Origin: Eledone cirrhosa
Taxonomy: Eukaryota
Reading direction: 5' to 3'
NCBI GenBank assembly: GCA_964016885.1
Contig: OZ024746.1
Coordinates: 87,916,001 to 87,980,000, forward strand
DNA length: 64,000 nucleotides
Shown here: in pieces, positions 10,519 to 63,027 of the stretch
Numbering within the stretch: position 1 is the stretch's first letter
How the letters are laid out: the number at the start of each line of letters is the position of its first letter
The notes under the pieces: model-generated
Told to the model about the DNA's origin: nothing
The model's database searches: none
Seen by the model: only the letters and a program-made list of their open reading frames with translations
Position numbers and translations under genes: made by a program

Positions 10519-12307
10519 GTGAGTACAGTCGGCCGAGGACACCGGTGTGATACGTCAACAACTGAAGAGAGATTTCGAGGCATACCGGATCGAGAAGCTC
10601 CTGAAGGCCGCAGAGGAAAATAAGAGCCTCAAGAAATCCGATAGGGGCATGGCAATGTACAGATCGGAGGTGACGACCCTGAAGAACAGAGCTGGTGTAC
10701 CGGTCAGCGACAAGAGTGAGGTGGAACATGTTTGCGAGACTTTTACACGAAGCTCTTCAAGTTTGCCGGGAATGTGCAGCTGTTGCCGTCACTCCAACAG
10801 GAAGAAAATGTACCACCCATCCTTGTCAGTGAGGTCGAAAGAGCCGTCGGCTTCACGAAAAGCGGAAAGGCGACAGGGAAAAACGGCATAACATCGGAGG
10901 TGTTGAAGTCAGGCGGAGAACACCTCTGGAAAATCCTCGCCGAGCGATTCACACACTATCTGATCGAGGGAAGAATACCCTCGCAGTGGGAAGAGTCGAA
11001 TACCATCCTGATATACAAGAAGGGTGATAGAGAAGATCTGAAGAACTACCGACCCATATACCTGCTATCTCACGTGTACAAGCTGTTCATGAAGATAATC
11101 CTGAACAGGTTATCATGTCATCTGGACGAACAGCATCCGACAGAGCAAGCTGGCTTCCGGAAGAACTACAGCACGATGGAACACATATTTACTCTGACAC
11201 AACTGCTTGAGTGAGCGAAAGAGTACAATATGCCTCTTTGCGTCGTGTTCGTAGACGACGGGAAGGCCTTCGACAGCGTCGAAATCAACGCAGTGCTGAA
11301 CTCGCTGCAGAGGCAAGGAGTCGAGGCGCAATACGTTCAACTGCTCAAGGAGGTGAATTCCGGATGCACCACCGCCATAGCTCTGCTGTCATCACCCGTA
11401 CGAGTGCCGGTCGAGAAGGAAGGGAAGCAAGGAGATACGATCTGTCGCAAACTTTTCACCGCGTGTCTCGAGCAGATCATCAGAGCCCGTGACTGGCAAG
11501 GCGGTGTCAACATCAACGGCGAGATACTTACCTACCTCCGTTTCACTGATGACAGCGTACTCATCGCTAGAACCACGGATCAGCTTCTGACCATACTGAC
11601 GGAGCTCGACATCAAAAGCTCTGCAGTAGGCCTCAAGATGAACCGCATCTAAACGAATTTCATGCGGTCCGCCAACGTACCAACAGGTCGAATGGTGGTT
11701 GGCGGTGATGAAATAGAGGAGATGTAGGAATACGTCTACCTAGGACAAGAAGTGAACATGAACCGAGACATTGAGAGGAAGATCTCGCGGAGAGTAAGGG
11801 CATGAATGAAGGCGTTCAACGGCATAAGGGCTGTGCTCAATGGGAGTTTGGACAAGACCACCCGCGCCAACCTCTTCAATAGCACAGTTTTACCTACAAT
11901 GTTATATAGCAGTGAAATTTGGGCTGCAACGAAGAGAGAAGAGCAGAGGCTGGAGAGATCAATGCTAGGATTCTCGTTTAGAGAGCACATCAGGAGCGAA
12001 GTCATCAGACAGAAGTCCGGCGTAAGGGACGTCATCACGAAATATATGTGCAGCAAGTTCAGATGGGCTGGACACGTCGCCCGGTTCACCGATAATCGGT
12101 GGAGCCGCGCAGTTGCTGAGTGGTACCCGCGCGAGCGGAAACGACCACTCGGAAGGCCTCCACGAAGGTGGAGTTACGATTTTAGAAATATGATTGGGAC
12201 TACATGGAGGAGGAAAGCACGAACCAGAGAGGAATGGATGGCGTGCTGTGACAAGCGGCGCTGAATGGACGCCCGGCTGACTGGTCGGTAAAGGTGATCA
12301 AGGTGAT
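10516..12307 (+). mobile_element. 5'-truncated RTE-clade LINE, RT pseudogene
   Basis: Motifs YRPIYLLS, EQAGFR, DDGKAFDSV, KQGDTI, RFTDD, RWAGHVAR, RPLGRPPRRW. Frameshift near 10735 and stops near 11212, 11650, 11725 and 11803. 3' tandem tail AAGGTGATC-AAGGTGAT; TA at both junctions. Confidence 0.95.
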
Positions 12308-15930: not shown

Positions 15931-16487
15931 ATATATATATATAGAGAGAGAAAGAGAGGGGGGTAGTTGAAGGGAGATTATTATCTTATAATTTCTTATG
16001 AACATTGATAAGAATTGTATGATCGAAATTTACACATTTGGAAATCAGTCTATAAATATATGCATAGTGAACAATTACATGTCAAATTATTCACAAAGTA
16101 TATCTACGTATATTATGTGAATATAGAATTAGAAGAAGGCATTTAACTAACACGTATATGGAAGCAATTGTTTTACATGAATATTAGCCAACATGTCTAT
16201 AATTACGTACATTATTTAATAAACCAGACAATGCTATCCAAAGGAACATGGTACCATGATGGACATTATAGCTGCTGCTTCATACATTATTAGTAATCAT
16301 GTTGAATTAGTCTTACTTAACCTCATTGTTCATCCAGCGGTAGCATTATTATTTGCTATTCGTAGACATTCTCTATATTAATACAGCTCTACATGTGTAC
16401 ATGTGTATATCCTCGAGTGCCCACGCGTGTGCGTATGTATGTGTGGGGTCTGATCTATTGTATTGTATTATATTATGTTATAGTAAT

Positions 16488-16840
16488 GGGCGGTAGATTG
16501 GCAGTGTCGGTAGAGCGTCATACTCTTGCAGCATAGAGTGCTGTCCCTTTACGCCCTGAGTTCAAATCCCACCGAGATAAATTTTGCCTTTCATCCTCAC
16601 GGGGTCGGTAAAATAAAGCACTAGTAACGCACTGGGGTAATTGCTGGCCTTGTGGCAAACGAAGAAACAAAGTATCGGTAGAGGTTTGGACGCCATGCTT
16701 TCTAGTATAGTTACGTCCCTTTACAGTCTGAGTTCAAATCCCGCCGAGGTTAACTTTGCCTTTCATCCTTACGTGGTCGATAAAATAAAGTACCAGTAAT
16801 GTACTGGCTAATTGATGGCCTTGTGCCTAAAGTAGAAACA
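16488..16840 (+). mobile_element. Head-to-tail dimer of tRNA-derived SINE, family S1
   Basis: Two units (16488-16670, 16671-16840), each with B box GAGTTCAAATCC, TTTGCCTTTCATCCT..GGTCG.TAAAATAAAG and a GGCCTTGTG..AGAAACA end. Flanked by GTTATAGTAAT / GTTATATTAAT. Confidence 0.9.
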
Positions 16841-17046
16841 GTTATATTAATAATATTATCTATAATGAATCTTGTTGCAGATCATATTTTTACTCAGGGG
16901 CGGACATTCAGCTGCTGACGATCTAAACTAAATTTTCAGACCTTCCTCTAAACAAATTTGGGTAGAAAAATATAGAATTATTATCTACGATTGTTTTTTT
17001 TATAATAATAATGGCAATGATAAAGAAAACTATATATATATATATA

Positions 17047-28636: not shown

Positions 28637-28850
28637 GGATTGGCAGTAACGGTAGAGAATCGGAGACCATGCTTTGCAACATAGAGTTGCGACCCTTTAT
28701 GGTCTGATTTCAAATCCCGCCAAGGTTACATTTGCCTTTCATCCTTACGGGGTCGATAAAATAATGTACTATTAACGTACTGGGGTCTATTTAATCGACC
28801 CCCCCCCCCCCCTAAAAAAAAATCACTGGCCTTATGCCTATACTAGAAAT
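28637..28850 (+). mobile_element. SINE family S1, long subtype
   Basis: GATTGGCAG..TTCAAATCCCGCC..GCCTTTCATCCTTACGGGGTCGATAAAATAA..TTAATCGAC-polyC-polyA..GGCCTTATGCC..AGAAA. Confidence 0.9.
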
Positions 28851-29724
28851 CATATTTTTTTAATTTCCAGGAGAACATTTAGATTTACTGTTTCGAATAA
28901 TATTTCTTCTTACTTTTTTCATTTTGTGGTTTCAGATATTAAAATGCAGCCAGGCAGTGACACCGCCTAGCCATGGCTGCGCCTATCGTTATCATTTCTA
29001 TACACATACACATGTGTGGAGAAGGAAAAAGGGAGAAATGTTTTGAGGAGATGTGTGATAATATCTACACGAGGAAGATAAAAGAGAAAGAGGGAAAACT
29101 ATAATGAAGGGGCGATAGATTGAGAACACCTTTATTTGAGTATTGATTAAAGGGGGAAGTAGTAAATTTATGAGGCAAGACAAAATAGAAGGCCATTTAC
29201 TTAGAAGATATTATCGACGTAGTAAATTAACATATATATAAAAACATTTGATATGCCGAAAACTGCAGATAGTGGTGTTGATGGTGGTGGTGGAAATCGA
29301 ATACTGCAGTTATTGTACTTAAATTTAACCACATTTTTTTTTATCGTATATTTTAAATGTCATTTTTTAAAACTCATGCATCTTAATAACATTAACTATC
29401 ATTTGCCATACTGAATATTTTACAAACAAGTAGGTTTTCAGTGAGATTAACTAATTCAAGGACAATAAATAAAGCACAGTGTGAAATATTTAATAAGATA
29501 GGGATTTACAATGTTTATTCATGCAGAATTTATGGGGAATTCTCTCGGGTAGGAAATTAACTGAAGTTTTTGTTAGAGTAGTTTATATGAATAAGCAACT
29601 GAAACCAATAGGAAAAAACTATCACTAGAAGCATTATATATAATGGATTATCAAATTAATGCTATGAAATAAAATAATGATAATTAATGGTTTAATAATT
29701 CAAATGATACGATCATGAAATAAT

Positions 29725-29945
29725 GGTTTCTTATATAGGCACAAGGCCAGTAATTTTTTTTTAAGTTTTTTTTTTTGGGGGGGGGGGGAGTTGATTAAAT
29801 CTACCCCAGTGCGTGACTGGTACTTTATTTTATCGACTCCGTTAGGTTGAAAGGCAAAGTTAACCTCGGTGGGATTTGAACTCAGATCATAAAGGGCCGT
29901 AACTCTATGTTGCAAAGCTCTACCGATACTGCCACTCCACCACCC
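29725..29945 (-). mobile_element. SINE family S1, long subtype
   Basis: Full S1 match. About 15 bp TSD ACGATCATGAAATAA (29709) / ACGATAATGAAATAA (29948). Confidence 0.9.
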
Positions 29946-30244
29946 AAACGATAATGAAATAAAAAATGTTCTTCAAGGTAATTATTGTGTTTTATATGCC
30001 AACGCCCGTGGTTTTACCGTGAGGCCTTCGGGTAAAGTGCATTAGGCTTAGAAATCATGCAAACTATTATATACGCCATTTGCAGTCGAGTTTAACTTCG
30101 TAGTATGTACTCGGTTTTGGTTGGGAACACATACATTCAGAAGAAGGCATGGGCACCATCTAGTCCATTCCTTTATTGTTCATATGGAACATCCAGGATG
30201 TAACCACCAGAAGTAAGAGAATTGACACATTTTGATAGACCGTG

Positions 30245-30350
30245 GGCTGATACTTCTTTGATAGACTGTGAAAGGATCAAAGGCAATGTGTAAATCGGTG
30301 GGATTTGAACTCAGATCGCAAAGAACTGGACAACATAGCCAAAGCTCTAA
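30245..30350 (-). mobile_element. Degraded SINE S1 fragment
   Basis: AAGGATCAAAGGCAA..CGGTGGGATTTGAACTCAGATC matches the S1 core. Confidence 0.7.
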
Positions 30351-37614: not shown

Positions 37615-37928
37615 ATATATTGAAATGATAACAAGGACGATTGTTTACTCCTTCATTACATTTATTGGTAGGTGACTCGCGTTTCGCCACTGATCAGCTC
37701 AAAGCTCGACCTCTATCGAACTTACCCGACTATATAATCGGCAGCTCGACGGGCCCTTTAAAATAAAATGCATTTTCTTATAGAATTTTAAAGGGTCCGT
37801 CGAGCAGCGGATTATAGAGTCGGGTAAGATCGATACAGATCGAACCTTGAGCTGATCAGTGGCGAAACGCGCGTCACCTACCAATAAATGTAATGAAGGA
37901 GTAACCAATCGTCCTTGTTATCCTTTCA

Positions 37929-37935
<7 letters not shown>
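37615..37935. mobile_element. About 320 bp palindromic fold-back element in TA context
   Basis: Arms of about 150 bp are mutually complementary. The right arm has GCGAAAC-GCGC-GTC-ACCTACC-AATAAA (hammerhead 3' half plus polyA signal). Confidence 0.85.
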
Positions 37936-41380: not shown

Positions 41381-44300
41381 TTCTACCGTGTTGTGATACA
41401 GAATGAGCGGCAGCAGCTGTGTGCTAAGAGAGTAACAATTCTAAGATAATAAGTTTGAAAATTTACTTAGGCGGTTAATTGTCTTGGTTTGCATAGTTTA
41501 TGTATGAAGTCGCTGTGGCGAAACATACCACAATTAAATATAATATGAAGTGCAAAGCTAGAAGCGTGCATATTTTGAAGTAGCTGTAAAATATTTGAAT
41601 AGTAGGGTTTGAATAGAACTTGGAAAAATCTGTTAAAAAATGCTCAAAAATAAATGAACATGTACTTAATACGGTCAATACGAATGAAAGCACTTGGAAT
41701 TGGATATTTCGCGTAAATTTGGTTAAATATTGTCAAATGTATCAGCTGGAATTCAGCAAAGTAATTGAGGTCGCCTGAACTCATTTAAATGGCTGGGAAG
41801 CGCGTTACGTTGAAGGCAATAGATAAGCTTGACACTTTTTGCAATTATTCTTCTAGAATAGGTAGGCACATCTGGCTTTATTATTTATTCGGTCATTCGC
41901 AATCTCTTTCATTTGTCTTCGGGATATACTAATGTCAAGTTCCTCGCGATTCAACGTTAATGTTTCAGGAAAAACCCGTACACACAGATAAATATATATA
42001 TATATGTGTGTGTGTGCCGGTATGGCTTGATTGGGGTGGAAATATGTTAGGTATATCTGCCCCTAAAAATTACCATAATAACATATTGTTTACAACTAGT
42101 AGAATTCCCAACGAAATCAATGCGAGGCATTAAAAACACTATATGAAGGATTCGTTAGGTTTATACAAATAACAGAAACACATACACATGCGTGGTAAGG
42201 CGAGCATACATTCGTACATACATGCATCTTTGCACGCAAATTCACACGCTAACACATATACACTATCTGTCTCTCTCTCACTCTCAGAACTGTATACCGT
42301 GTGATTCGTAGTATAGGACGCGCTTTTTTTTTCAAAAATATGACACTCAAAATCACTGTGTTAGGTTTGGAGTAATTACAGACGATAAAAATTGTATAAT
42401 TAATAAGTTGGAAATATTTAGCCTTTTGTTTAAATTTTCGAAGTGATAAGAATGATAGTAACGTTAATAGTATTAATTACCCATAATTTTTTTTCTTGCT
42501 GGATATTCATGTTAAATTTAGAGTGCCTCCAATATTGCAGTGTCCGAAAAATACGGAATGCTTCAATTTGTATACAAACATGTGTGTTTGTGTGTAGTTT
42601 TTCGTTTCAACCATGGCCACACAATTATTAATTATCAAACATTAATGATTGAACCGAGGTAAAATTTCATGTGTTACATTTTTACTTCACACTCCCCGTT
42701 TCTAGATGTTGACGTAAGTTTAAAAATGAAAAGAATAAAATAACAACAGAAAACAGAATTAAAGAACAACAATCAAGGAAAAACACGAACTCCACAGCGC
42801 ACAGATGGTAAGTAAATATTTTCTTGCGTGAACAAGCAGATATAGATATGTAACTACCATCAGAGAGACCAGAATTTCTGACACACGCGCAATAACACCC
42901 ACATTTAAAGACAAGCAGTAGTGTGAAAGTGTTGTTTAGGAAAAGCCTTGATCTCGACGTAAAGAAGATCTTCCTGAACCCGGAAGTTGGGACTACGTGG
43001 GAGTAGCTGATAGTAGCTGAGTTGCAATAGAATCGAGTGCCTGATCAGCCAGTTCAAACTGGATGACAGGTACTCACTAGATTTCCAAAATACTCTTGTT
43101 TGGACCAGTAAAAAACAGAGAGCGACATATAATTCGTATCTAGATGGGTTTTTCGTCACATAAACTGATAAGGATAGTATAGGTTAACCATATTTCTGAA
43201 CGGTTGCCTATTAAGATCACAAATTTGTGATCTGTATGATCGATCTAGATAGAATATGTTTAGTTAGATCAGTTTATTGAAAACTTAAAACTTCGTCCTG
43301 GTGATTAAAAAGGTGGTTGGAGGCTCTGAAGAGAGAGGTTAGATACATATAAATAGCTTTTAGTAAATATATAGCGAAAGAAAAATATAGAAAGCAAAGT
43401 GAACTGCTAGCTAAATGAGAGAAGGCTATTAGAATGTGCATTGATATGCTAGAGGCTGGAATAACATTTCTTCAATAAGAAACGCGAAGCTTACATTTCC
43501 GGGCTCAGGTTTAAGAAACGAGGGAACGATAGCTTTTCAATGGATGCTAGTGTTGAGGCCTAGTTTCGTAACATATTCACGATACACTCTTTGACGGATC
43601 TAGATGAAGGTTTCCGCCAGTAGTTTGTTCGAGTTTGACGGAGTGGGCTCGGAGACCTACTTGGACGGTCTCTTGCCTACTTAGCCAGCCGATGGAGGGT
43701 GCTGTGAAAGGGGGATAACTTCAGCCGAAATTTAGGATGCTCTGTTTGTCTTCACGAGGCGCAAGACACCGAGTTGGGGAGTGTGCTCTCCGAGTTATAC
43801 GTATACCAGATATGTTGTCCAATTTCCATTGTTACACCGAATAATTCATTCAACATTTATTACTTCTCATAGATAAATTAACCAGGATCACAGTGAGCTG
43901 GTTAGTCTTTCAACTTCCGTCGCCTTTAGGGGTTAAACCGAGGTCTAAATATTAGTTTAAAAAAATAAATTTGCGGATTAGTTATACACGTTTGTTGAAA
44001 GGAATTACTACCCCTCCACCGAATGTAAGGGTAAATCATTCACAGCAGCAACCTATACCAGAATCAACAACGAAGCAGAGGAAATGTACGCAATGAATTT
44101 TCCGCTGATAAAAATGTCAACACTACCATCGCTATCACAGGTGCTACAACATAATATAATGACAACAACAGCAACAATACTAGCGAGACATCTTCTTCCT
44201 CCACTACAAGTAACACCAACAACTCAAACGACAACAACACCCCAACCACCAGCAGAGCATCAACATAATATATCAGAGGCAAATAACAAAAATAGCAGTA

Positions 44301-44510
44301 ACACTGACAACTACATAAATGGCCAAAAACAACACTGCATAAACAAAAATAATAACATCAACTACACAAACAACATGATCATTAACAACATCAACTATAA
44401 CAACACGAATAAAATATTCACAGGTCCGGCTGCTATAGCATTCCCATTGTTCAATTTGGCCATTTTGAAAAGCAGTTATAATATTCATGCGGGACATTAT
44501 TTCTATTTTT

Positions 44511-44702
44511 AGAAGGATGATGTATTGGAAATATGGGTAGAGCGTCAGACACCATGTTTTACCACATAGAGTTATAGCCCTTTACGTCCTGAGTTCAAAT
44601 CTCGCCACCGTTAGCTTTGTCTTTCATCCTCACGGGGTCGATAAAATAAAGCACAAGTAATACACTGGAGTAATTGCTGGCTTTGTTCCAAAAGTAGAAA
44701 CA
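44511..44702 (+). mobile_element. SINE family S1
   Basis: S1 body; flanked by ATTATTTCTA at about 44496 and 44703. Confidence 0.88.
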
Positions 44703-46953
44703 ATTATTTCTACTGTTACGTCGGTATGATTCGCTGGCTGCGCTGCTTAGGATAGGCATGTTTCTTATTCTAAAATATTCGTATTAAAAATGCTCCAAAT
44801 ATGTTGTTCTTTTTCTTATTCTTGTTTATGATGTTGTTTCTCCTGCTATATAAAAAGCTTTTGTCTGAATTACTGTTATTTTTGTGTTTTGTTTCTGTAA
44901 GATTTTTTGCTTCTCTAGTAGAGTAGGTAACAAAGTTCGTGTTCGTGTTGATAATTGTTTTTGTTTTCTTCCCTTAGCTTTGATGTTCTTAAGATTGCAT
45001 TACTTTTTTAGTTTGCTGAAAGTACACTTCATAATTTCCTCGTGCAATGTTGTTATTGTTGTTGTTGTTCTTGTTGTTGCTGCTTTCATTTATTTTTTTT
45101 ACTATGGCTGTTCTGCCAGGCGGAAAAGAATTCGTTTTCTGTCATCATATGTTTTAAACAAATTTAGGGCGTATTGGAAACTAGATACACATCTATTCCA
45201 TACTAACCAGTTTAACAAGTAACTGTTTTTTTTTAATACTAGAAAAGAATATTACATATTTTAAAAAGATACGTTGAATAACAATGTATTTTTGCTTGTA
45301 ATATGAGTATAACAAAAAGCAAAATTAAAATCTAATAAAGAAGACATAATCCACGGTCACCCCCTCGCGTGGGCAAGTGCATTCTCTATGTTTCCTCCTC
45401 CAGTTAACAAGCTGATACTCTGAGAGGGCCTTTCACATAGTCCATGCCCGCCACTCTCCACCACCTTTGAACAAACTGGTTGTAAGTTTAACTTTTAACC
45501 CTGATTATCCTATTCAATTGAAACTTGAGAAGGAAAAAGACCATCAAAGACAACAAAAACACAAAATCTTCAACAACAAAAACAACTAGAGGCTTTAAAT
45601 AATAATACTTATAATTATATAGAAAATGAAACAACGCTCGATTTTAATGAAATATATGATTTGCTAATTGTGCCAAAATTTGTTTTCAGAGGAAGCCAAA
45701 TTTTCTCTGATTAGATGCCAAGAGAGACTAGGAAATAGGATTATATTAATAATTAGTCTAACCCGCTTAAATAGAAATTATTCGCTACTGCTATGCCTTG
45801 GATGGTTTGTTAAGTACATTAATGGCAACTCCTTTCAAAGTAATTCCCCACGATAATTTCCCATCAATTAAAAAGCAATTTTACTGTAGCACTAATACTG
45901 TGTTTAAGCATAAGAGAGTTGTATATTAAAATATATATAATAGCTTTATATACAATAAAACGATATGTGGTCTCGCTGTCGAAGAAACTATTATTTTACT
46001 TAACGAGACGAAATTATAAAAAAAAAAATACCCAAACGAAATAAATGTGTCTCTATATTGCTCTGTGAATATATCACCGACTTGTGAGTATGTTTTTGAG
46101 AATGTCAGACAGTGTATTTTCAGGTTTTGTTAATCTGTTACCATTGACACACTCAAAAATGCACTGTCATGACATTGACTATAGCCTCTATAAAATCTTG
46201 CGTGACAACCACGTCATTTGAATATATAGCTAGCTTGGCGATAGCACTAAAACAGGGTTCAACACATACTCATGGTGTATGAGAAAACATTTATAAATAT
46301 ATACAATACAGTTATATAAATATCCATATAAGCCTCGCTGTCAAAGAAAAAAATCTTGTTTCGAAAGGAAAGGAAACGAATATATATTATTTTTCGCTAT
46401 TTTCCTGTGGGACTGTACCACTGAGTTGCATGAATTTTACGAGTGTGGGGCAGCATCATTTCAAGATTTGTTAATCTTTAACAGTTAGACTCAGTGAAAA
46501 TGTGTTGGTAAAAAATAGACTAATGTATTTTGAATTATCCGTGCATAATTAGTTAAACTCGCATTATATGCAAATGACCATGTTCAGCCGATGTTTCTGT
46601 GTGTAACATGAGATGATCATCTCCACCAAATCATCATCACGAAAAGTCTATATAGACTATAGTATATTTCAGGCCAGTACGTTTTGAGTGAGTGTCTATG
46701 GTACAAGTTTAACAAGTCTTAAAACAGAGCAGACTAAAATATTCAAAACATGGCAACTAAATCATGTTCACAGAGGAAAATAGAGAAAAAAGTATTTTTT
46801 CAATATTTGTTTTGTTTGGTTCCGAAATAATATTTGTCTATAGGGAAAAAAGACGAAATCGAAAATGCAACTGTAGTCTTTTTTTTTTTAAATATATATT
46901 TAATTGGTTCCTTTACCGGTTTCGCACTTCTTCTGCTTTTCGCATCCAGCACC

Positions 46954-47024
<71 letters not shown>

Positions 47025-47028
<4 letters not shown>

Positions 47029-47666
47029 AGCTATCGCCGTATTTTGACTAAAGAAATTAAATAAATTATTTAGCCTGATAGTGGGGTTAAGAACCGTCGG
47101 AAAAATGCGAAAAAATGAGTATTGACGTACATGGTAGTCAAACCCACATCTTCGGTTAATCGGACCACTGTGCTACAATTTACACATCACCCATTTTTTT
47201 TCCATTCAAATTAGAAGCTATAAGCTTAGCGACTGTAATGTCAAGTAAGAATATTTTCGAAACAGCGAGTGCGTTTGAAATTATTAGAAATGTAAATTAT
47301 CGCCGTATTTTGACTAAAGAAATTAAATAAATTATTTAGCATGATAGTGGGGAAAAGAACCCTCGGAGAAATGTAAAACAGATGAGTATTTATGTACATG
47401 GGAGTCGAACCCACATCTTTGGTTATCCCGACCACTGTGCTACCATTTACACCAACACACTAGCCGTCTTATTCCATTCAAATTAGAAGCTATAAAATTA
47501 GCGACTGCAATGTCAAGTAAGAATATTTTCGAAACAGCGAGTGGGTTTGAAATTATTAGAAATGTAAGCTATCGCCATATTTTGACTAAATAAATTAAAG
47601 TAATTATTTAGCCTGAAAGGGGGGTTAAGAACCCTCGGTGTCGCTAAGTTTATAGCTTCTAATTTG
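47025..47666. mobile_element. Partial tandem array (about 270 bp unit, 2.3 copies) with a tRNA-like module and an inverted terminal piece
   Basis: Units start at 47025, 47291 and 47563. Minus-strand tRNA-like TGGTGTAAATGGTAGCAC..GTGGGTTCGACTCCCAT at 47391-47460 and about 47123-47190. 47640-47666 is an inverted copy of CAAATTAGAAGCTATAA..TTAGCGAC. Confidence 0.85.
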
Positions 47667-49148: not shown

Positions 49149-49250
49149 GTATTTTATGTGTTACATGTAAAGGTTTATATGTTGCTGCCTCATGTAGCCT
49201 TGCTTCGAAATCTTGTGCAACGCCTCACGTTTACGTGTACGTATAATGAC

Positions 49251-49306
49251 TGTTTCTACTTTTGGCACAAGGTCAGCAATTATATCAGTGTATTACTGGT
49301 GCTTTA
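49251..49306 (-). mobile_element. Severely 5'-truncated SINE S1 with perfect 16 bp TSD
   Basis: GTTTCTACTTTTGGCACAAGG..TTACTGGTGCTTTA between TACGTGTACGTATAAT at 49232-49247 and 49307-49322. Confidence 0.9.
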
Positions 49307-50270
49307 TACGTGTACGTATAATAATGATAATTTATATATATATATATATATATATATAGCCATTTCAATCTAGACTATAATAAAGTAAGGAGTGCGGGAA
49401 GGCGTACGGTTTATCTCTTTTAATCCAATTAGCAACATAAGTTGCATTATTTTGAATAAATAATGAATTAAAATTATCTACTAAATTTCGTAGCTGTTGA
49501 TTAGATATATTTTATTGTTTAAAATTTAGCGATCGCTTAAATAAACATTCATATATTTCCGGCACTAATTATCACCTAATGCAGTTTATATATAATATCG
49601 TCTTTTATTAAAGCATCATGGAATACGTTACTGATTACATAAGAGAATGTTACATAAGAGAGTGTAACGCAGTCTTCGTTCAATTTCTGTGTAGATTGAA
49701 AATTACAATTTTATTTGATGTATATCTACATGCTTATATATTTGTATTTTATTAAATAATGTTGCAAATGTGAGTTAAAATATGAACACATAATATATAC
49801 AGGGTATATAAATAAATACACAGTAGAATAAAATAACATTTTTGTTCAATATATATATAAATAACATGATAAATGCTTAGATAAAAAAAATTGCTCGCGA
49901 TTCTTTGAGAAGGATATATTCATTTAATGGTACAATATTTAAAAAAAATGTAAAGGAAGGGTTGAGCAACCGAGCCCCCATCAGAGGAAAGGACAGCAGC
50001 GGCGAGGAGTACTAGACAATCTCTCTAATGATTTCTAGGCAACCCAGCACACTCGCAGTGTTTACTCGGGTGATGGCGAGACTAATATCAATATTCACAC
50101 TACACATGCTAGCAGAAAACCGCCCGAGTCTGGTTTTTCTGCTACTATATATAAATCTTCTACACAACTAGAATTATTTCATTCACAGGAAATCACCAGG
50201 AAAACCCTGTTGGTTTCTTTCGAATTGTTGTTTACAATCTACAAATGTATTGTGTATCTTACTTACTCTG

Positions 50271-50362: not shown

Positions 50363-50917
50363 CAAAGTATCATGAAACTTGAAGCTCCTCAAAGGGCAAT
50401 CACGAAAAAGATAGATGGCATGTCAGACCTTGACTACTGGGGTCGATTGGAAAACCTGAAACTTTACTCACTCCAACGTCGCCGTGAGCGTTATATTATC
50501 TGCATGATGTGGAAAATGTTCCATCATCACTGCCCAAATGATGTTGGCATCGCCTTCAAGATACACCCAAGGCTTGGGCCCCGTGCTATCCGTCCCATTC
50601 AAAAATCTAAATCGCAACTCATAACAACAATACGGCACAATTATTTCACCTCAATCGGCCCTGCTCTCTTCAACATCACACCAGGACACGTCAAAACAGA
50701 AACTGACCACACAAAATTCAAGAAGTCTTTGGACAAATTCCTCCAAGTAATCCCGGACAAACCACCCACACCCGGATATGTCTCCGCAAACAGTAATTCT
50801 CTTCTCGAATGGGCCATGGTGCCCAAATTCTGAATTGAAAGACTTCGCCAGGTGGTGCTATTAAGTTAGACATGGCCTGGGCCAATACTGGCCAAAACAT
50901 TTCAAAGTTATTCAAAG

Positions 50918-50920
<3 letters not shown>
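50361..50920 (+). mobile_element. 5'-truncated CR1-group LINE 3' end inserted in (TA)n
   Basis: Open 153 aa ORF2 C-terminus (LEAPQRAITKKI..YWGRL..LYSLQRRRERY..FKKSLDKFL..IPDKP) with tail (TTCAAAGTTA)x2 at 50901-50920. Confidence 0.92.
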
Positions 50921-54473: not shown

Positions 54474-54649
54474 GTGTTTCTATTTTTAGGCACAAGGCCA
54501 GCAATTAACCAGTACATTACTGGTACTTTATTTTATCGACCCCGTAAGCATGAAAGGCAAGGTTAAACCCGGCGGCATCTAAACTCAGATCATAAAGGGA
54601 CGTAACTCTATGCTTCAAAGCATGGTGTCCGACTCTCTACCGATACTGC

Positions 54650-54650
<1 letters not shown>
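54474..54650 (-). mobile_element. SINE family S1
   Basis: S1 match. 3' end GGCCTTGTGCCTAAAAATAGAAACACTTATTATT; the 5' end abuts (AAT)n. Confidence 0.9.
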
Positions 54651-54685
<35 letters not shown>

Positions 54686-54914
54686 TTTTCTTTATTAACC
54701 ACAAGGGTTTACATAAAGTAGACATTAAGGACAGTACAGGACAATAAAGGACGGTACAAATGGGCATTTCTGCGTGTAAAAAAACAGAGGTTGAAATAAA
54801 ATTCCCCAATAGGGGGGAGACTTCCGAGGGACATTTGTGGAGAAAGCCCATTAAAAGACCACAGTGGCCCTGACCACCAGGGCAAGTGCCCTCTCCCAGT
54901 TTTCCACCTTTAAT

Positions 54915-57900
54915 TTACAGACACATACTCAGAGAAGGCCCATTCATTCGGGCCATACTTGCTTCTCTCACCCATCTTTCAACAAAATGCTGGGAAGAGA
55001 GCACTTCCCTCTCTACCCTGATTTTCCTTTTCAAATGAAATTTGAAAAAGTTAATCAGGGCATCACCGAAGAGGTAAGTGCTCGTCTTCAGCCCTTTCAA
55101 ACGTGTCCACCATACTATCTCTTTCGCCATGGCCACCAGACAGATAAAAACTGCCTGCCCTTCCCGGCTAAAGGAAGGGGGCGGGGCAATCCTCACGATG
55201 GACTCAGCTCATAGCTGGATCCGTCCTACACGTGACGGCAGGTGTTCGACAGAAACCCACAAGTCAGCAATGCTCGGACACAGGACGAGTGCGTGCAGGA
55301 CGGTTTCGTCGCCCTGCGCGCATCTCGGACATGCCCGGCTGACGGCACCTCCATGCCTGTAGAGTTTATCCCGAACTGGCAAAGCTCCTCGGTAGCACTG
55401 CCAGGCCAGGGATTTCTGGAAGTTGTCCATAGGCCCCGGCCCGAAAGTCCTTCCGAAGAGATTGGCTAGTTGATTTTCGTCGACGCCTAGAGTTTCTCCA
55501 AGTACGTCGTCGCTCTTCCCCTCCACTAATCCCCTATAGAACGCCAAGGTGGAGTTTCCACCGATCACATTGCCCGATTGGTCGAGGGCTGTGAGCGCCT
55601 GAAGACATTCCAGTCTCCAAGCGCTCCCTCTCGGTCTTCGCCTGACCCAGGACTGCAGCTCCGTCAAGGAGACGAGCTGGGGAAAAACGTGTCTTGCAAA
55701 CGGCGACCACACCTGATCACCGTCGAGGAAGAGGTGGAGATGTCGTATCCTGAGTGCGTGTCTGCGCATCATCAGCCACGGCATGCCCAGCCCTCCACGT
55801 AGCGGGTGTTGACAGCAGATGGACCGCCTGACCATCGGAGCGCGTCCCTTCCACAAGAAGCGAAAGAGCAAACGCTCCAGCGCAGTCAGGCGGGGCTTAG
55901 GACAAGGTACGACGGTCAGGCGGTAGTAGATGACGGATGCGATGTACGCATTCGCCACCTCCGCTCGACCTTTCAGGGATAGCTTCCTCTCGGCCCATTT
56001 CTGGGTGAGAGAAGCCACCCTGCTCGTCACCTCGTCCCAGTTTTTGTCCGTCTGGAGGTCTGGACCGAACAAGACCCCTAGCAATTTAACCGGTCCGTCC
56101 GTCCAGCGCCCGACGACGCTGTTGGACGGCATGGACCTGCCTCTCCAGGTGCCGAGCTGCAGGCCCACTGACTTTTCCTGGTTGATCATTGCTCCTGTCA
56201 CCGCTTCGTATTCTCTTAGTGTAGTGCCGATCACCTCGATGTGTTTGGCGTTCGACACCACTACGGTGACATCGTCGGCATATGCTGACACGGATCTTCC
56301 GCATCCTAGTTCGCGCGGGACCCCCCTCAACGTCTCCAGTTTGTGCAGTAATGGCTCGAGAGTCAATACGTACAATAGGGACGAGAGGGGACATCCTTGG
56401 CGGACCGAGCGCATGATGTTGAACGGTTCCGAAAGGTGACCGTTCACTCTCACTACAGAGCAGATGTCGCTGTGCATGGCAGCGATCCCGCCTCTGAAGA
56501 CGGGCCCAAAGCCAGCCGCCCTCAGGACTCCCGCTAGGTAACGATGGTCGACCCTATCGAAGGCTTTCGACTGATCTAAATTGATCAAAGACCCATCCGT
56601 GCCAGGTTCCTTAGCTACCCTCTCTACGATGTATCGCATGAGGTGGAGGTTGTCGTGGATGGATCTGTCGGGAATGGCGCATGTATGTGCCTCTCCCAAC
56701 AGACCACCAACGACAAGCGCCAACCTCTTTGCTAGCACCTTGGCCAAAATCTTGAACTCTGTGTTTAGCAGAGTTATGGGCCGGAAATTATCTATGTTAT
56801 CCCCCTTGTTCGGATCCTTTCTCAGCAGCGCCACCGCTCCTCGGCTCACACAGCTGGGAATTCTCCCGTTCTGTTGCCAGTTGCAGTAGACGTCCGCCAA
56901 GAGGCCTCCGAACAAGTTTGGCATTTGTACGTAAAGTTCATAGGGCAGAGCATCCAAACCAGGCGATTTACCCCTTGTGCAACTAATCATTGCATCCCGT
57001 ACTTCAGCGGTTGTTATCGGCTTTTCGCAACACTCCGCCTCAGTGGCCGAAATCCGCGGCAGTCCGTCGTGGTAGACACTAAAGTCCATCCCTCGACCCG
57101 GCCCGCCACTGCCCCCGAACAGTTGAGCGAAGTGTCGCTGAAAAGCTTCACACGTTTGCCCGGGATCGAGTAGCATGCGCCCGTCGTGGTCCACCAAAGA
57201 CCGGATCGTGTCTTTGTTGCCACGACGCGCCTCCGCCACTCGGGCCCATTGAACGGCTTTCGTCCCCTCGTTTCTGAGAGCACGCACCCTAGCTCTGACA
57301 ACGCAGCCTTCGTGCTTTGCATTGAAGAATTGGTCAAGGGCCAATTTCGCCGCAAGTACGTCGGTCACGATGCCTTTGCTAAGCGCCTCATCTAATTTTC
57401 TAACTAATTCTCCCTCTGCTCTATTTTTCTCTATTGCTAAAGTCTTACTAAACCTAATGGACTCTATTCTAATTGCTCTTTTCAGAGCAAACCACCACTT
57501 GTTGTTGACGATGGCCCCCGTCAACGCCCGCTTAACTAGTTCGCTAATCCGGTCTCTGTAGGCCTTGCGCGCTGGTAAGGACGCGTTTAGCTTCCAGTAG
57601 CCGGGTCCTCGTCTATGAAGCCTATCTAAGTCAAGCACACAGATCACGAATTTGTGGTCCGTGTAGCTGACTATCTTGAATTGTGGACAGCCTATGCTAG
57701 ACCTATCTATTTCCCTACAAAATACTCTATCTAGATATGATCTGGATGACCCTATGCGATTTGTCCAAGTCCACATTGGTACATTCGGGAAATCCATTCG
57801 GTACCTGTCAGACAGTTCAAAACGTCTGAGCAGGTTGGTGAGACTCTTGCACCCCCCTTCCCTATCCACTAATCCCACACAATCCCAGCGTGCATCTAAG

Positions 57901-58222
57901 ATCCCGTTCCAGTCGCCCACTAACACTAAAGAGCGGGACGTTCCAAGAAAGGTCTCCAGACGCCGGAAGAAATCAGGCCGCCCTGATCCAAACCTCTCCG
58001 AAAAAGCACAGCAACTCCTCCCTCCGATCCCGGACGGCTGGGAGATGCGTACACATCGTAGCCGCCGAAGATCGGTGCGAAAGCCTGTGCTTCGGAGATT
58101 CTGGTCTCGCTGATGGCCACTACATCTATGTTTAGTGACCTGAGGTCGTTGAGCAGGTGGCCCTGCTTCCATGACGACCCCAAGCCACGCGCATTTATGC
58201 TGCCTATTCTGAGTGAGGTCAT
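54915..58222 (-). pseudogene. Tx1 ORF2: APE endonuclease, reverse transcriptase, C-terminal zinc knuckle (disabled)
   Basis: Starts MTSLRIGSINARGL..ISETR..GGVAVL. A deletion/frameshift near 57990 removes the VYAP region. Then GDWN, LDRVF, TDH, GYWKLN, FRPITLLN, LDQSKAFDRV, VRQGCPLS, YADD, CPRC..ETVLHALVLC. Premature TGA at 55209-55211; frame continues to 54915. Confidence 0.93.
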
Positions 58223-58256
58223 GTTGAAAAGGAGTGGAAAAGATGGGAAAGACCAC

Positions 58257-60206
58257 TTACCTTACTTCTCGTAGGGGAAGGACGGCTTTTCCATCCTTTT
58301 CACTGCTTGTGGCCTCCTCAGGAAGGATGTCCTTATAAATCCTCCTGGAGAGTGCTTGTCGGAAGTCTCCGATGTCTGTGGGGAATTTTTGTTTTAGTGT
58401 CATGTACGTTTTCTGTGTGATGCGAGTGATTTGTATGTGTGGAGGTGGTGTGAATTTTGGGGTTGTTGTGTAGTCTTTTTCTGTGATGCTGGTGTTGTGT
58501 TGGATGTAGTGTAATAATTGCTTGTTGTTCAAATTTAATGCTGTGTAGTGTGTATCGTTTTGGTTGTTTTGTTTTGTTTGCGTTTGTTGTGGGTTTGTTT
58601 CTGTTTCGCATTTTGGTGACTTTTGTGGTGTAGGTGATGGTGGTGTTGGAGTTAATGATGGTGATGGTGTTGGTGTTTGGGTTGATGGGGTTGGTGATGC
58701 TGTGTGGATGGTGGCATATCTGTCCTAACTTTTTTGTTTCTTAGTTTATTTGTTTCCCTCTGTATTTTGTTTTTGGAGGGGGAAGGAAGATAATTTTTTC
58801 TTTTTTGGTTTCTTTTTTTTTTCCGGATATCGTTTCCCACTCCTCGTCGTCACAATCTGTCTCCAGTTGTGATAGGCCGGGGAGTGGAAAATCCTCCACA
58901 GCCGTTAGTTTTGGTTGTGGTGTGGTGGATGGTGTAGGCGCTGGTGCTAGTTCTGAAGCGTTGGGTGGTGGTGGTGTTGGTTTTGCTACTGTTGCTGGGG
59001 TTGTTGCTGTTATAGTTGCTTCTGTTGTTGCTGCTACAGTTGTTGCTGCCATCTCTGCTACTGGTGGTGTTGATGGTTGTGTCACTGGGGTGGGTAGGAG
59101 AGGTGGCCTCAACCTTTTAGCCTGAGAGCAGAAAGCCCTTAGGTGGGTTCCTTCACCACAAACGACACACCTAGGTCTTCTGCCCTCGACAATTACCGTG
59201 AGGTGGCTGCCGTCAGTGAGGTCTATTACCTCTGGGATCTCCTCAATGCTTTTTTGGTCCGCTTGGATCAGGAGCTCCATCCCAGATCCGGACCAGTTTT
59301 CCTGCTTTTCTTTTGCTACTGCTATTATTTTCGTGTTGGCTTCGATGCCGGCGAGGACAGCCGCTATTAGCCAGGGAATTTCGATGGCCGGTGGAACGTG
59401 GGTCACCCTGATCTTTACGAGTCTCTGGCCACAATAGCTTGGGACGAGTGTGAGGTCGTCACTTTTTAATGGGGCCATGGAGTGTTCTCTAGCCTCCTCT
59501 GGTGTTTCAAAGAACACATCCACGGTTCCATACTTTTGCCCACGTCTGATGTGGGTTTTTCTTGCCCGCACATTTCCCAAAGCTTTTTGGATTTGGGACT
59601 CGGATGCCCGTTCCACTCGGCGCGATTTTACATTTATTGTTCTATACGACACAGTGCACAGGCGCCGATGCTCCATTTTATTAGGTGGGAGGTGAGGCTG
59701 ACCCTGTACACATCTTTCTTTACCATTTGTTTGGCATTTTCTAAATCTTCTTGAGTTACCGTGAACGCTTCGAATTGTTTTGCTACGATGGCGAAACTGA
59801 GGGTCGGTTTTATAATGTCATTGTTGTTGTTGTTGCTATCGTTATTTGTGTTAATCTTAATTTTTGTTTCAGTTTTGGTGGTGGTGACGTCATTCGTCTT
59901 TGGTGCGGAAGAGTCCATTTCGACATCACGAGTTAATTTATTTTTTTCTTCTTTTGTTTCTGTTGTCGCGGTGGTGGTGGGGGTGGTGGTTGTCGCGGTG
60001 GTGGTGGTGGTGGAGGCTTTAACATCTGCAGTCATTGGTAATGGCGGGAAATGAATGTCTGCCTGAGACAAATTTAAAATATTGCTACTGCTTATATTTT
60101 TTTTTGTGTTGGCAAACGTAGTAACATTTAGAATGGTGGTGTCGGTGTGAGGTGTTATCTTGTGAGGAAGGCTTTCAGCTGCTTCGTGCAGAGGGGAATT
60201 AGCCAT
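58257..60206 (-). pseudogene. Tx1 ORF1 (gag-like: RRM-like region, CCHC knuckle, low-complexity tails), frameshifted
   Basis: ATG at 60206, frameshift in an A-run near 59677, CVVCGEGTHLRAFC (CX2CX4HX4C), further shifts at about 58500-58800, stop about 35 bp before the ORF2 ATG. Confidence 0.85.
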
Positions 60207-60415
60207 TTTTCTTCAAAGAAATTTTTGGATAATAATAAAAGTTAAAATTTTGGGCACAAGGCCCCAATCTTTTTGGGTGTCCTTTTCGGAAAACAATGTA
60301 TGTGTGCTTATAAACAGTTTACAATAACATTTTCCATAAATGGCAATTTTTAAACAAACAGAAATAACAAACCTTTGCGGAGCTCACGATAATACGATTT
60401 CCTACGTAGGTCGCC

Positions 60416-60469
<54 letters not shown>

Positions 60470-60874
60470 TGATATGTATGTTCCAATAGACAAGAATGTA
60501 TCTATAAAAACATTTGAAAAATTGAGCAAGTATAAGGACCTGGAGATAGAAATTGGAAAAATGTGGAAATTGAGAACTAAAACAATACCAGTGGTTGTAG
60601 GCGCTCTGGGAATGATACCTAAGGGGTTTAACGACTACTTATCGCAAATCCAAGGAAACCCGCGTATAGGAGAAATACAAAAGATAGTACTAATGGGAAC
60701 TGCCCATATACTAAGGAAGATCCTGTCAATAAAAGTACATCACAAGTCTAAACACTAAGGATGCATGTGTGAATATGTGTGTTCTTTCTTGAACATGGCG
60801 GACCTTGTTGTCTCTTGAGGTCACTGGTTGTGACTTGGTGATAACTCGTATAAACATAAAGCAAGATAAATGCA
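60470..60874 (+). mobile_element. 5'-truncated R4/Dong-clade element (restriction-like endonuclease C-terminus) in (TAA)n
   Basis: IIDMYVPIDKN..EKLSKYKDLEIEIGKMW..IPVVVGALG..IQKIVLMGTAHILRK, a short 3' UTR, and (TAA)n on both sides. Confidence 0.9.
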
Positions 60875-60904
60875 AATAATAATAATAATAATAATAAAAA
60901 TAAT

Positions 60905-60954
<50 letters not shown>

Positions 60955-61599
60955 TAATAATAATAATAATAATAATAAAAGAATTACCAATAATTCATCA
61001 GTTATCAGTGTGCCAAAATAAAGACATTACGAAAGCTTTCATCTCTTTCACATTTACTTTTTTCTGTATTCATTTTACCTCTAAATCTTATCTCTGTTAC
61101 AATTAATAAATGTATCTGTCTATATATCTGTCTATCTCATACGTCTTGCAAAACCGTGACAAAAGGATTATTCCCATTATCTAATTATTATTCGACGAGA
61201 CACACACATGTACATACAGCTGTATCCAACTGAATATATAGACACCAACAACATACAGGCTACATAGATTGTGATAAAGAATATAACTTCATTAGTCCAC
61301 AAGTCTGTCTAATGAATTCGTTATGAGAATTAGGGTGAAGACTTTCAGAATTAATTTTTCTTCAGTCATTTAACGTTCTGTTGAATTTTTTTCTAATCTG
61401 ATTGCATTACATTAATTATATACTTATTTAGTCAAATAGGATATTATGTGATGAATTATCTCGTATGTCGAACAGGGTAGTAGTTTTCTCATAGTAATTT
61501 ACTAATACTCCGATCGCAATGATTTTGAAATAAGAATCAGTTTAGAGAAACCAGCTGAAGCAGTATTATGATTTCTTCCTTCCTTCATCATCGTCATCC

Positions 61600-62030: not shown

Positions 62031-62540
62031 GGGGATCAATCACTGGCTAACATTACGCATTTTCCTATTAATTGTGGTACAATCGGAAATGTTGTTCGTA
62101 ACACACTGAAACACACACATACACATGCAGACGCACGCGCATACACACGTAGACCCACGTTAACAGACACGCACACACACACAGACGCACACATATATAC
62201 ACACACATATCTATCTATATATATATATGTATGTAATACAATAACAGAGATAGCTTTAAGCTAGACTCTGACTGCTAACCATCTCACTCAACAAACATTA
62301 GGTTATATGTTAGTATAAACCTAATTTAAGTGTTTGGGGTGCTAACTATATGTATTATGTGGAAAGCCAGTTGTATTATTTTATGAGATATAATTAAAGT
62401 TAAAATATATCTCTATATATATGTATATAAATATATATGTGTATATAAATATATATGTATATATACACACAAACACACATACGCACTCACACACGCTCGC
62501 ACACACATATGCCCCCACACAAACACATAAATATATATAA

Positions 62541-62718
62541 TTGTTCCTACTTTTGGCACAAGGCCAGCAATTACTCAGTGCATTACTGGTACTTTATTTT
62601 ATCGACCCCGTAAGGAGGAAAGGCAAAGTTAACCGCGGCGGAATTTGAAATCAGAATGGCAAGGGCCGTCACTCTATGCGTCAAAGCATGGCGTCCGACC
62701 CTCTACCGATACTGCCAA
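62541..62718 (-). mobile_element. SINE family S1
   Basis: S1 match; 3' end GGCCTTGTGCCAAAAGTAGGAACAATTAT. Confidence 0.9.
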
Positions 62719-63027
62719 ATGTAATATATATATATGTATATATATACATATATTCAACAAAACATCCGTCGGATGGAACAACGAAAGAGTGCCCTGTCTA
62801 AATCCATGTGCTTCTCACACTTAATATGTATTCTGCCATCTTAGCTATCAAGACATAGGTGTGGCAGCGACTCAAGTATGTACATGAATGTGTAGAATGT
62901 ATGTAGATGTGGAACGTCGACATGTAATTAATTTGTTTTTTTTTACGCCAGATGAATGTCACCTACGCGTTGCCAATTTCCCTAAGCATTAAAACCTTAT
63001 AAAACACAATATATATTACATACATAT

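Follow-up and report, generated by a model that had tools for sequence, protein, structure and literature searches.

TTAT at the insertion points of the S1 SINE in Eledone cirrhosa and a candidate L1-group LINE partner lying in ATT arrays

The window analyzed here, a whole stretch of 64,000 nucleotides from Eledone cirrhosa, is animal DNA of 35% GC that is rich in microsatellites and retroelements. Among these is a repeat of about 180–220 bp, designated S1, that is short, non-coding, interspersed and multi-copy, with eight tail-bearing copies and one fragment near position 30323 in 64 kb and pairwise identities of 0.69–0.91. The tail-bearing copies lie at 16488 (A), 16669 (B), 28637 (C) and 44506 (F) on the forward strand and at 29947 (D), 49306 (G), 54651 (H) and 62720 (I) on the reverse strand, and they represent seven insertion events, A and B forming a head-to-tail dimer. 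Scored with at most one mismatch against what we take to be the Pol III consensus, an A box is present in five of the eight copies, a B box in five, and both in four, and judged by these boxes in its head S1 is a predicted non-autonomous tRNA-type SINE; ARAGORN and Rfam called no tRNA or RNA family on any S1 copy in the window. S1 resembles the octopus tRNA-derived CORE-SINEs OR1 and OR2, reportedly those of Ohshima and Okada in 1994, in being an abundant tRNA-type SINE, and it may be identical with them and carry a CORE domain. A search with short motifs through all but one file each of the supplements of PMC4758252 and PMC4824008 found no match to the S1 body, and an exact 23-nt pattern of the S1 tail had 0 matches in metagenome contigs. 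Copies C (28786–28815) and D (29800–29755) carry before the tail an insert of 30–45 nt made of a C run and an A run, which the other copies do not have, and the two subfamilies so defined have one common terminus. Within the dimer, at 16660–16675, the tail of A meets the truncated head of B through a common AGT with no target-site duplication (TSD) in between, possibly the result of a template switch.

On the reverse strand at 54685..60415 there is a near full-length, broken copy (5731 bp) of an L1-group (Tx1-like) non-LTR retrotransposon. Its ORF1 (approximately 60212–58741, reverse strand) has a CCHC knuckle and is frameshifted, and its ORF2 (58222–54918, reverse strand) holds APE, RT and zf-RVT domains, with about 38 APE residues absent at a frameshift and a stop at 55209–55211. 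Pfam matches of ORF2 were RVT_1 (4.6e-26), zf-RVT (4.9e-07) and Exo_endo_phos (0.0017, below cut-off in a partly deleted domain), and the best solved-structure match was human L1 ORF2p at 1e-41 vs 5e-19 for R2; the LINE is placed in the L1 group because of these domains and this best solved relative. In a tree of 100 RT pieces, which holds no named Tx1 reference, it groups with the unnamed proteins P0001–P0006, for the first of which the Atlas gave no clade, apart from named plant L1-like proteins, and “Tx1-like” is accordingly used as a label and not as a clade membership read from the tree. The 5′ end is placed by one line of support only, family read depth that reaches the last bin, and Rfam gave nothing credible there (four weak matches far below gathering score). 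Inside the 5′ UTR, about 20–50 nt ahead of ORF1, a GGGC-CTTGT-GCCC motif followed by a TTAT run (60262–60232, reverse strand) has no Rfam match; it could derive from a captured SINE end or belong to the 5′ UTR of the family. Two decayed relatives at 43040–43457 (forward) and 45531–45371 (reverse), of 65–68% DNA identity, showed no tail and no clear or ATT junction.

An (ATT)11 array (54652..54684, reverse strand) stands immediately behind the 3′ end of the LINE and an (ATT)18 array (60416..60469, reverse strand) immediately ahead of its 5′ end. The earlier note had the element followed by ATTATT, and ATT does follow, but this understated the arrays on its two sides. S1 copy H lies directly behind the downstream (ATT)11 array, and abutting the upstream array is an R2-group (RLE-type) 3′ fragment in opposite orientation (60470..60874, forward strand), probably of Dong/R4 affinity, followed by (AAT)n to 60976. 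The interval 54475–60976 can thus be described as one AAT/ATT microsatellite locus holding three retroelements, S1 copy H and the L1-group LINE on the reverse strand and the R2-group fragment on the forward strand, and the upstream (ATT)18 may stem from the neighboring RLE element. Elsewhere in the window there are a broken RT element at 10523–12306 (forward), which ends in a doubled AAGGTGA unit and which we take to be RTE, and a LINE 3′ piece at 50363–50920 (forward), which ends in a doubled TTCAAAGTTA unit and is presumably CR1-like. Three tandem units of about 270 bp occupy 46931–47638, one of them containing a tRNA-Ser(GGA)-like gene (47389–47462, reverse strand) barely above the Rfam cut-off, and a MITE-like foldback element at 37615–37934 has 150-bp arms, 92% complementary and 20 nt apart. 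One fragment in the window gave a 68% match to an O. bimaculoides protein, which together with the repeat landscape suggests an octopus.

Four S1 duplications had been cited in the earlier note, and all four were found where it had put them. Copy G (49248..49306, reverse strand) is a 59-bp, 5′-truncated SINE tail with a 16-bp TSD, the 3′ copy at 49232..49247 and the 5′ copy, with a short ATT run before it, at 49307..49322 (both reverse strand; 49232/49307, 16/16 matching); an alternative reading with one extra ATT on the left gives an 18-bp TSD that starts TCATTAT. Copy D (29709..29962, reverse strand), a long form with the C/A-rich insert, has a 15-bp TSD with one mismatch (29709–29723 and 29948–29962; 29709/29948, 14/15), copy F (44496..44712, forward strand) has a perfect 10-bp TSD (44496–44505 and 44703–44712; 44496/44703, 10/10), and the dimer (A 16488–16668, B approximately 16669–16840) sits inside one 11-bp duplication with one mismatch (16477..16851, forward strand; 16477/16841, 10/11). 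The note had thus drawn on four of seven events. Of the three left uncited, copy H (54475..54651, reverse strand), in the (ATT)n array behind the LINE, fits the proposed pattern, and two do not, namely copy I (62530..62732, reverse strand), with a TATATATATT duplication in a TA-rich tract, and copy C (28637..28852, forward strand), another long form. One unbiased TSD finder was run on all seven events, with 1500 random AT-rich (at least 70%) left flanks as the control for each, and the observed score was reached by 1 of these flanks for G, 0 for D, 1 for F, 42 for the dimer, 6 for H, 17 for I and 335 for C; rates were similar with 3000 flanks drawn without AT matching. The TSDs of D, F, G and H are solid, those of the dimer and I less so, being weak, and for C no TSD is credible. 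The duplication around the dimer is borderline, being outscored by 1 of 42 cross-paired flanks. S1 has features of target-primed reverse transcription, namely TSDs, strong for D, F, G and H and weak for the dimer and I, and the 5′ truncation of G.

On the element strand the tail-free 5′ TSD copies start with GTTAT in the dimer, TTATT in D (preceded by T), ATTAT in F, ATTAT in G and TATAT in I, and that of H is inside the ATT array, so that a TTAT core is present in five of the seven events. The starts had been described earlier as (A/G)TTAT. TTAT is common to the cited copies, but the leading purine was over-fitted, since it is absent from the tail-free copy of D, which has T at 29962, and the A reported before the D duplication is similarly present on the tail side and absent from the tail-free side; the purine before TTAT mostly belongs to the S1 end. 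TTAT occurs at offset 0 or 1 with a frequency of 0.020 in the window and 0.069 in sequence of at least 80% AT; since the letters that open the right flank are tail-like, a simple binomial test would mislead. When chance TSD calls were made with the real tail-like right flanks they started with TTAT in 32 of 78 cases for G, 59 of 121 for D, 51 of 132 for F and 45 of 218 for the dimer, and because chance calls so often start this way a TTAT start alone is weak evidence. An explanation could be that there is no real target preference, AT-rich TSD calls beside a TTAT-like tail being biased to TTAT and the fitting copies having been picked, and in its favor are the chance rates of 21–49% for the four cited flanks and the citing of four of seven events, one of them borderline. 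Against it are the scores of D, F and G, reached by 0–1 of 1500 AT-matched flanks, and the result obtained when, as a control for circularity, the register of each TSD was fixed from its distal part only: TTAT stood before the distal part in all four cited left TSD copies. Two of these, G (11/11) and D (10/11), have long anchors, and the probability that both would be so preceded by chance is about 0.035 × 0.035 = 0.001 on a background of at least 80% AT. We regard an artefact as very improbable. Compared with an AT-matched background, as the earlier note had proposed, TTAT is enriched at the TSD starts (register-anchored, about 0.001 for G and D), and the excess at S1 insertion points is real, in a small sample.

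What the excess does not provide is support independent of the tail match, for which it had been offered. TTAT is found exactly 3 nt after the terminal GAAAC in five of the eight S1 copies, and because at this fixed distance it is the element end too, the same TTAT serves in these copies as S1 end and TSD start. During target-primed reverse transcription, pairing is possible between the RNA end and the nicked target strand; any LINE machinery copying such an RNA end would favor TTAT sites, and the present data do not tell a nicking preference from tail pairing as the source of TTAT. In its strong form the earlier note held that an RTTAT target is due solely to a sequence-specific endonuclease, irrespective of the tail, and this is consistent with the position of the LINE in ATT arrays at three junctions and with the statement that target choice in the Tx1 clade is mainly set by the endonuclease (PMC4494074, in part). 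It is nonetheless improbable in that R is not conserved in the tail-free copies, the motif overlaps the element's own end, and most S1 targets are a single TTAT with no array. The length of the TSDs and their polarity are partly independent of the tail. Lengths of about 10–16 bp, as earlier claimed, are borne out and fit L1-group machinery (PMC4245944, in part), the peaks given there after Ichiyanagi and Okada being 13–15 bp for L1, 10–12 bp for RTE and 3–5 bp for L2/CR1; the S1 lengths fit L1 or RTE, and they make L2/CR1 disfavored but not RTE.

As for polarity, the element strand reads ATT for S1 as it does for the LINE. The proposal that they have a common target class is upheld by TTAT in five of seven S1 events and by the LINE in ATT arrays on the same strand, but not by C and I, which do not fit. 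Polarity also bears on the possibility that a TAA-repeat-associated R2-group element of Dong/R4 type drives S1. There is an RLE-type fragment in the same array, TAA repeats precede Dong in Bombyx (PMC3774820, in part), and of the LINEs in O. vulgaris Dong-R4 has the most recent insertions (PMC13282606, in part). Such a driver is disfavored because S1 and the LINE read ATT and the RLE fragment AAT; the repeat is (AAT)n on the strand of the fragment, ATAA occurs in none of the six S1 TSD starts examined, and the 3′ end of the fragment is without the CTTGT/GAAAC motif, all of which leaves this explanation scarcely likely.

The terminus of the LINE (54685..54712, reverse strand) resembles that of S1. 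It consists of an AACC-CTTGT-GGTT hairpin, AATAAA and GAAAAC followed by ATT repeats, and S1 ends in (T)GGC-CTTGT-GCC, an A-rich stretch and GAAAC followed by A-N-TTAT, so that over a co-terminal match of about 22 nt the CTTGT loop is identical and the stems differ but pair in both. The end-anchored match of eight S1 ends to the 22-nt LINE end, a region chosen by eye, was reached by 6–55 of 20000 random 21-mers. A CTTGT hairpin plus GAAA occurs four times in the window (three S1 ends and the LINE end) vs 0.2 on average across 60 Markov controls, for a pattern that was set after seeing the ends and in S1 copies that are not independent of one another. Folding of the LINE end gives a z of −2.95 and a hairpin pairing probability of about 0.9; the S1 hairpin is of 3–4 bp and dominates the ensemble in two of eight copies, and none of six S1 ends folded beat its shuffles (z −1.05 to +1.06). 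Stringent LINE–SINE pairs have been reported with a kept loop and differing stems (PMC4176376, PMC4824008, both in part). In free local alignment of the eight S1 copies the LINE end scored higher than those of the RTE, CR1-like and RLE elements of the window in four cases, with one tie and three losses. A match of about 22 nt that wins only four of eight free alignments would also be expected if a different ATT-tailed LINE, either RTE or an L1-group family from outside the window, moves S1, with TTAT arising from tail-target pairing at loose AT-rich nicks and the ATT sites of S1 and the LINE being parallel. TTAT at a fixed +3 after GAAAC in five of eight copies is consistent with this, as are the RTE TSD peak of 10–12 bp (PMC4245944, in part), which suits F, I and the dimer, and the presence in O. 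vulgaris of 80 L1-Tx1 families and recently active RTE, CR1 and Dong-R4 (PMC13282606, in part). On the other hand the window's RTE and CR1-like pieces have different terminal repeats, the CTTGT hairpin and GAAAC are co-terminal in S1 and the window LINE, and TSDs of 15 and 16 bp fit L1 better. A different LINE as the driver is therefore somewhat unlikely, although we take it seriously.

Public reads give a further view of the LINE family. Reads of four of 16 public runs were mapped on 54677–60421, runs with small word shares having been set aside and reads matching human DNA removed beforehand, a step that may lose long ATT runs. Three of the four runs contain the family in abundance; depth falls toward the 5′ end but still reaches the last bin in two (X6 and X14). 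In run X14 two internal points, 55372 (123 reads) and 55864 (114 reads), are joined through ATT-type letters to the 3′ end of the family; the two junctions are among the best 12 of 594 rows and come from one RAD run and two loci, and there is no CATG or AATT cut site at either point. They are 5′-truncated copies that start, on the element strand, in the ATT run behind another copy, and no other observation here speaks as clearly for ATT being a target as well as a tail. With the window junction this makes three LINE junctions in ATT runs (one window, two reads), a count without a denominator; the criterion for target preference in Tx1 elements has been more than 20% of flanks (PMC4494074, in part). 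Among the best 24 of 11306 rows there were no loose ends at either LINE terminus. Some other signals were discarded. Position 57331, which shows a large loose end (agreement 0.35), is an AATT site, and the reads that start at 57174/57177 do so at a CATG site; we take both to be library artefacts. A poly(A) loose end at 54798 is not a tail but an internal poly(T) on the element strand. Relatives found by protein comparison at the best 80 of 183 metagenome loci were mostly 22–32% identical, there were none in viral contigs, and the CTTGT/AATAAA end was found in 0 of those best 80. A young L1-group family of seven loci in public contigs (L057, L059–L064) is 99.4–100% identical, with a sharp 5′ end and variable, AAT/ATT-rich 3′ ends; it is uninformative here, since its 5′ flanks are unrelated and ATT-free and it lies far off in the tree.

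The observed TSDs, TTAT excess, arrays, polarity and terminal likeness point to the LINE family or a close sister as the mobilizer of S1, by nicking at ATT-rich sites, pairing of an AUU-like RNA end, and borrowing of this machinery by S1, a reading that we consider probable with modest confidence. Against it are the small number of S1 events (only seven, with C and I unfit) and the overlap with RTE in TSD length. In such a partnership ORF2p would bind a short 3′ signal common to both RNAs, consisting of the CUUGU-loop hairpin, an A-rich GAAAC and AUU-like repeats, which are present in the sequences of both. The APE domain would then nick ATT-rich DNA in its bottom strand to create a primer that would end in ATAA(T)-3′, a UUAU RNA end would pair with this primer, and reverse transcription would start. 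We infer such pairing because TTAT is at a fixed distance after GAAAC, and pairing would in turn have the TSD begin at or next to TTAT and overlap the tail. A second nick 10–16 nt downstream would generate a TSD of the lengths observed. The target preference may be relaxed for S1, for which one TTAT would be enough, and it looks tighter for the LINE because that element lands in (ATT)n runs, at the three junctions seen. A wider reading, tentative and considerably less secure than the partnership itself, is that a major octopus tRNA-SINE family rides a Tx1 lineage that is stringent, targets (ATT)n and recognizes a minimal CUUGU hairpin, that insertions lay down the ATT repeats that are targeted next, and that the LINE, the SINE and the opposite Dong-like element together extend AAT/ATT microsatellites. 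If true, a CUUGU-hairpin, (ATT)n-targeting Tx1 lineage would name an engine of SINE expansion in octopus, where SINEs make up approximately 11.6% of the O. vulgaris assembly (PMC13282606, in part), and the partnership would offer a compact RNA signal for experiment.

The annotation of O. vulgaris lists recently active L1-Tx1, RTE, CR1 and Dong-R4 elements, with 80 L1-Tx1 families, and the term “target site” does not occur in the available part of that paper (PMC13282606). Available excerpts of PMC8967140, PMC4758252, PMC5804259, PMC5786205, PMC3747384 and PMC4640811 name no partner LINE for octopus SINEs, and those of PMC4176376, PMC4824008 and PMC3747384 name CR1, L2 or RTE, not L1/Tx1, as partners of mollusc SINEs; “Tx1” as it occurs in PMC4176376 (in part) is the name of a mutant and not the clade. 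We found in the literature no octopus SINE–Tx1 pair and no (ATT)n-targeting Tx1, either of which Repbase or older papers (Kojima and Fujiwara 2004, Ichiyanagi and Okada 2008, Ohshima and Okada 1994) may record. If S1 had an L1/Tx1-group partner that targets (ATT)n, the known catalogue would grow by one target class and one SINE pair. Since the logic by which a shared target implies a partner is already established, as is the mechanism, this would be useful but not surprising to a specialist.

Several known systems resemble parts of what is described here. The common 3′ hairpin with a kept loop and a differing stem is like that of ZfL2/UnaL2 (PMC4176376), of bivalve CORE and V SINEs with CR1 and L2 (PMC4824008) and of an L1 lineage in maize and sorghum (PMC3747384; all three in part), but unlike stringent pairs S1 and the LINE have in common only about 22 nt with a stem of 3–4 bp. 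Dong, of the R4 clade (PMC3774820, in part), is associated with the same trinucleotide repeat class, but it has an RLE endonuclease and the opposite strand polarity and is here a neighbor and not a likely partner. Among Tx1 elements that target microsatellites, Kibi uses (TC)n, Koshi (TTC)n and a crocodilian group (TTCC)n/(TTTC)n (PMC4494074, in part), and like Kibi and Koshi the window LINE is an APE-type L1-group element inside a simple repeat; unlike theirs its repeat is (ATT)n, absent from the targets named in the available part of that paper, the likeness drawn here being one of target type. The closest precedent for the argument is crocodilian SINEU, assigned to Tx1-Mar by common target preference (Kojima 2015, PMC4494074, in part). 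In that system, as here, the target is what connects a SINE to a Tx1 family, there are tandem SINEs, and some SINE families show a weaker preference (PMC4494074, in part), although SINEU-3 tandems sandwich a TSD and the S1 dimer has none inside. The target of SINEU and Tx1-Mar is a Mariner transposon and the SINEU heads are of U1/U2 type (same source, in part), whereas S1 has TTAT/(ATT)n as its target, a tRNA-type head with A and B boxes, and a 3′ end in common with the LINE as added evidence.
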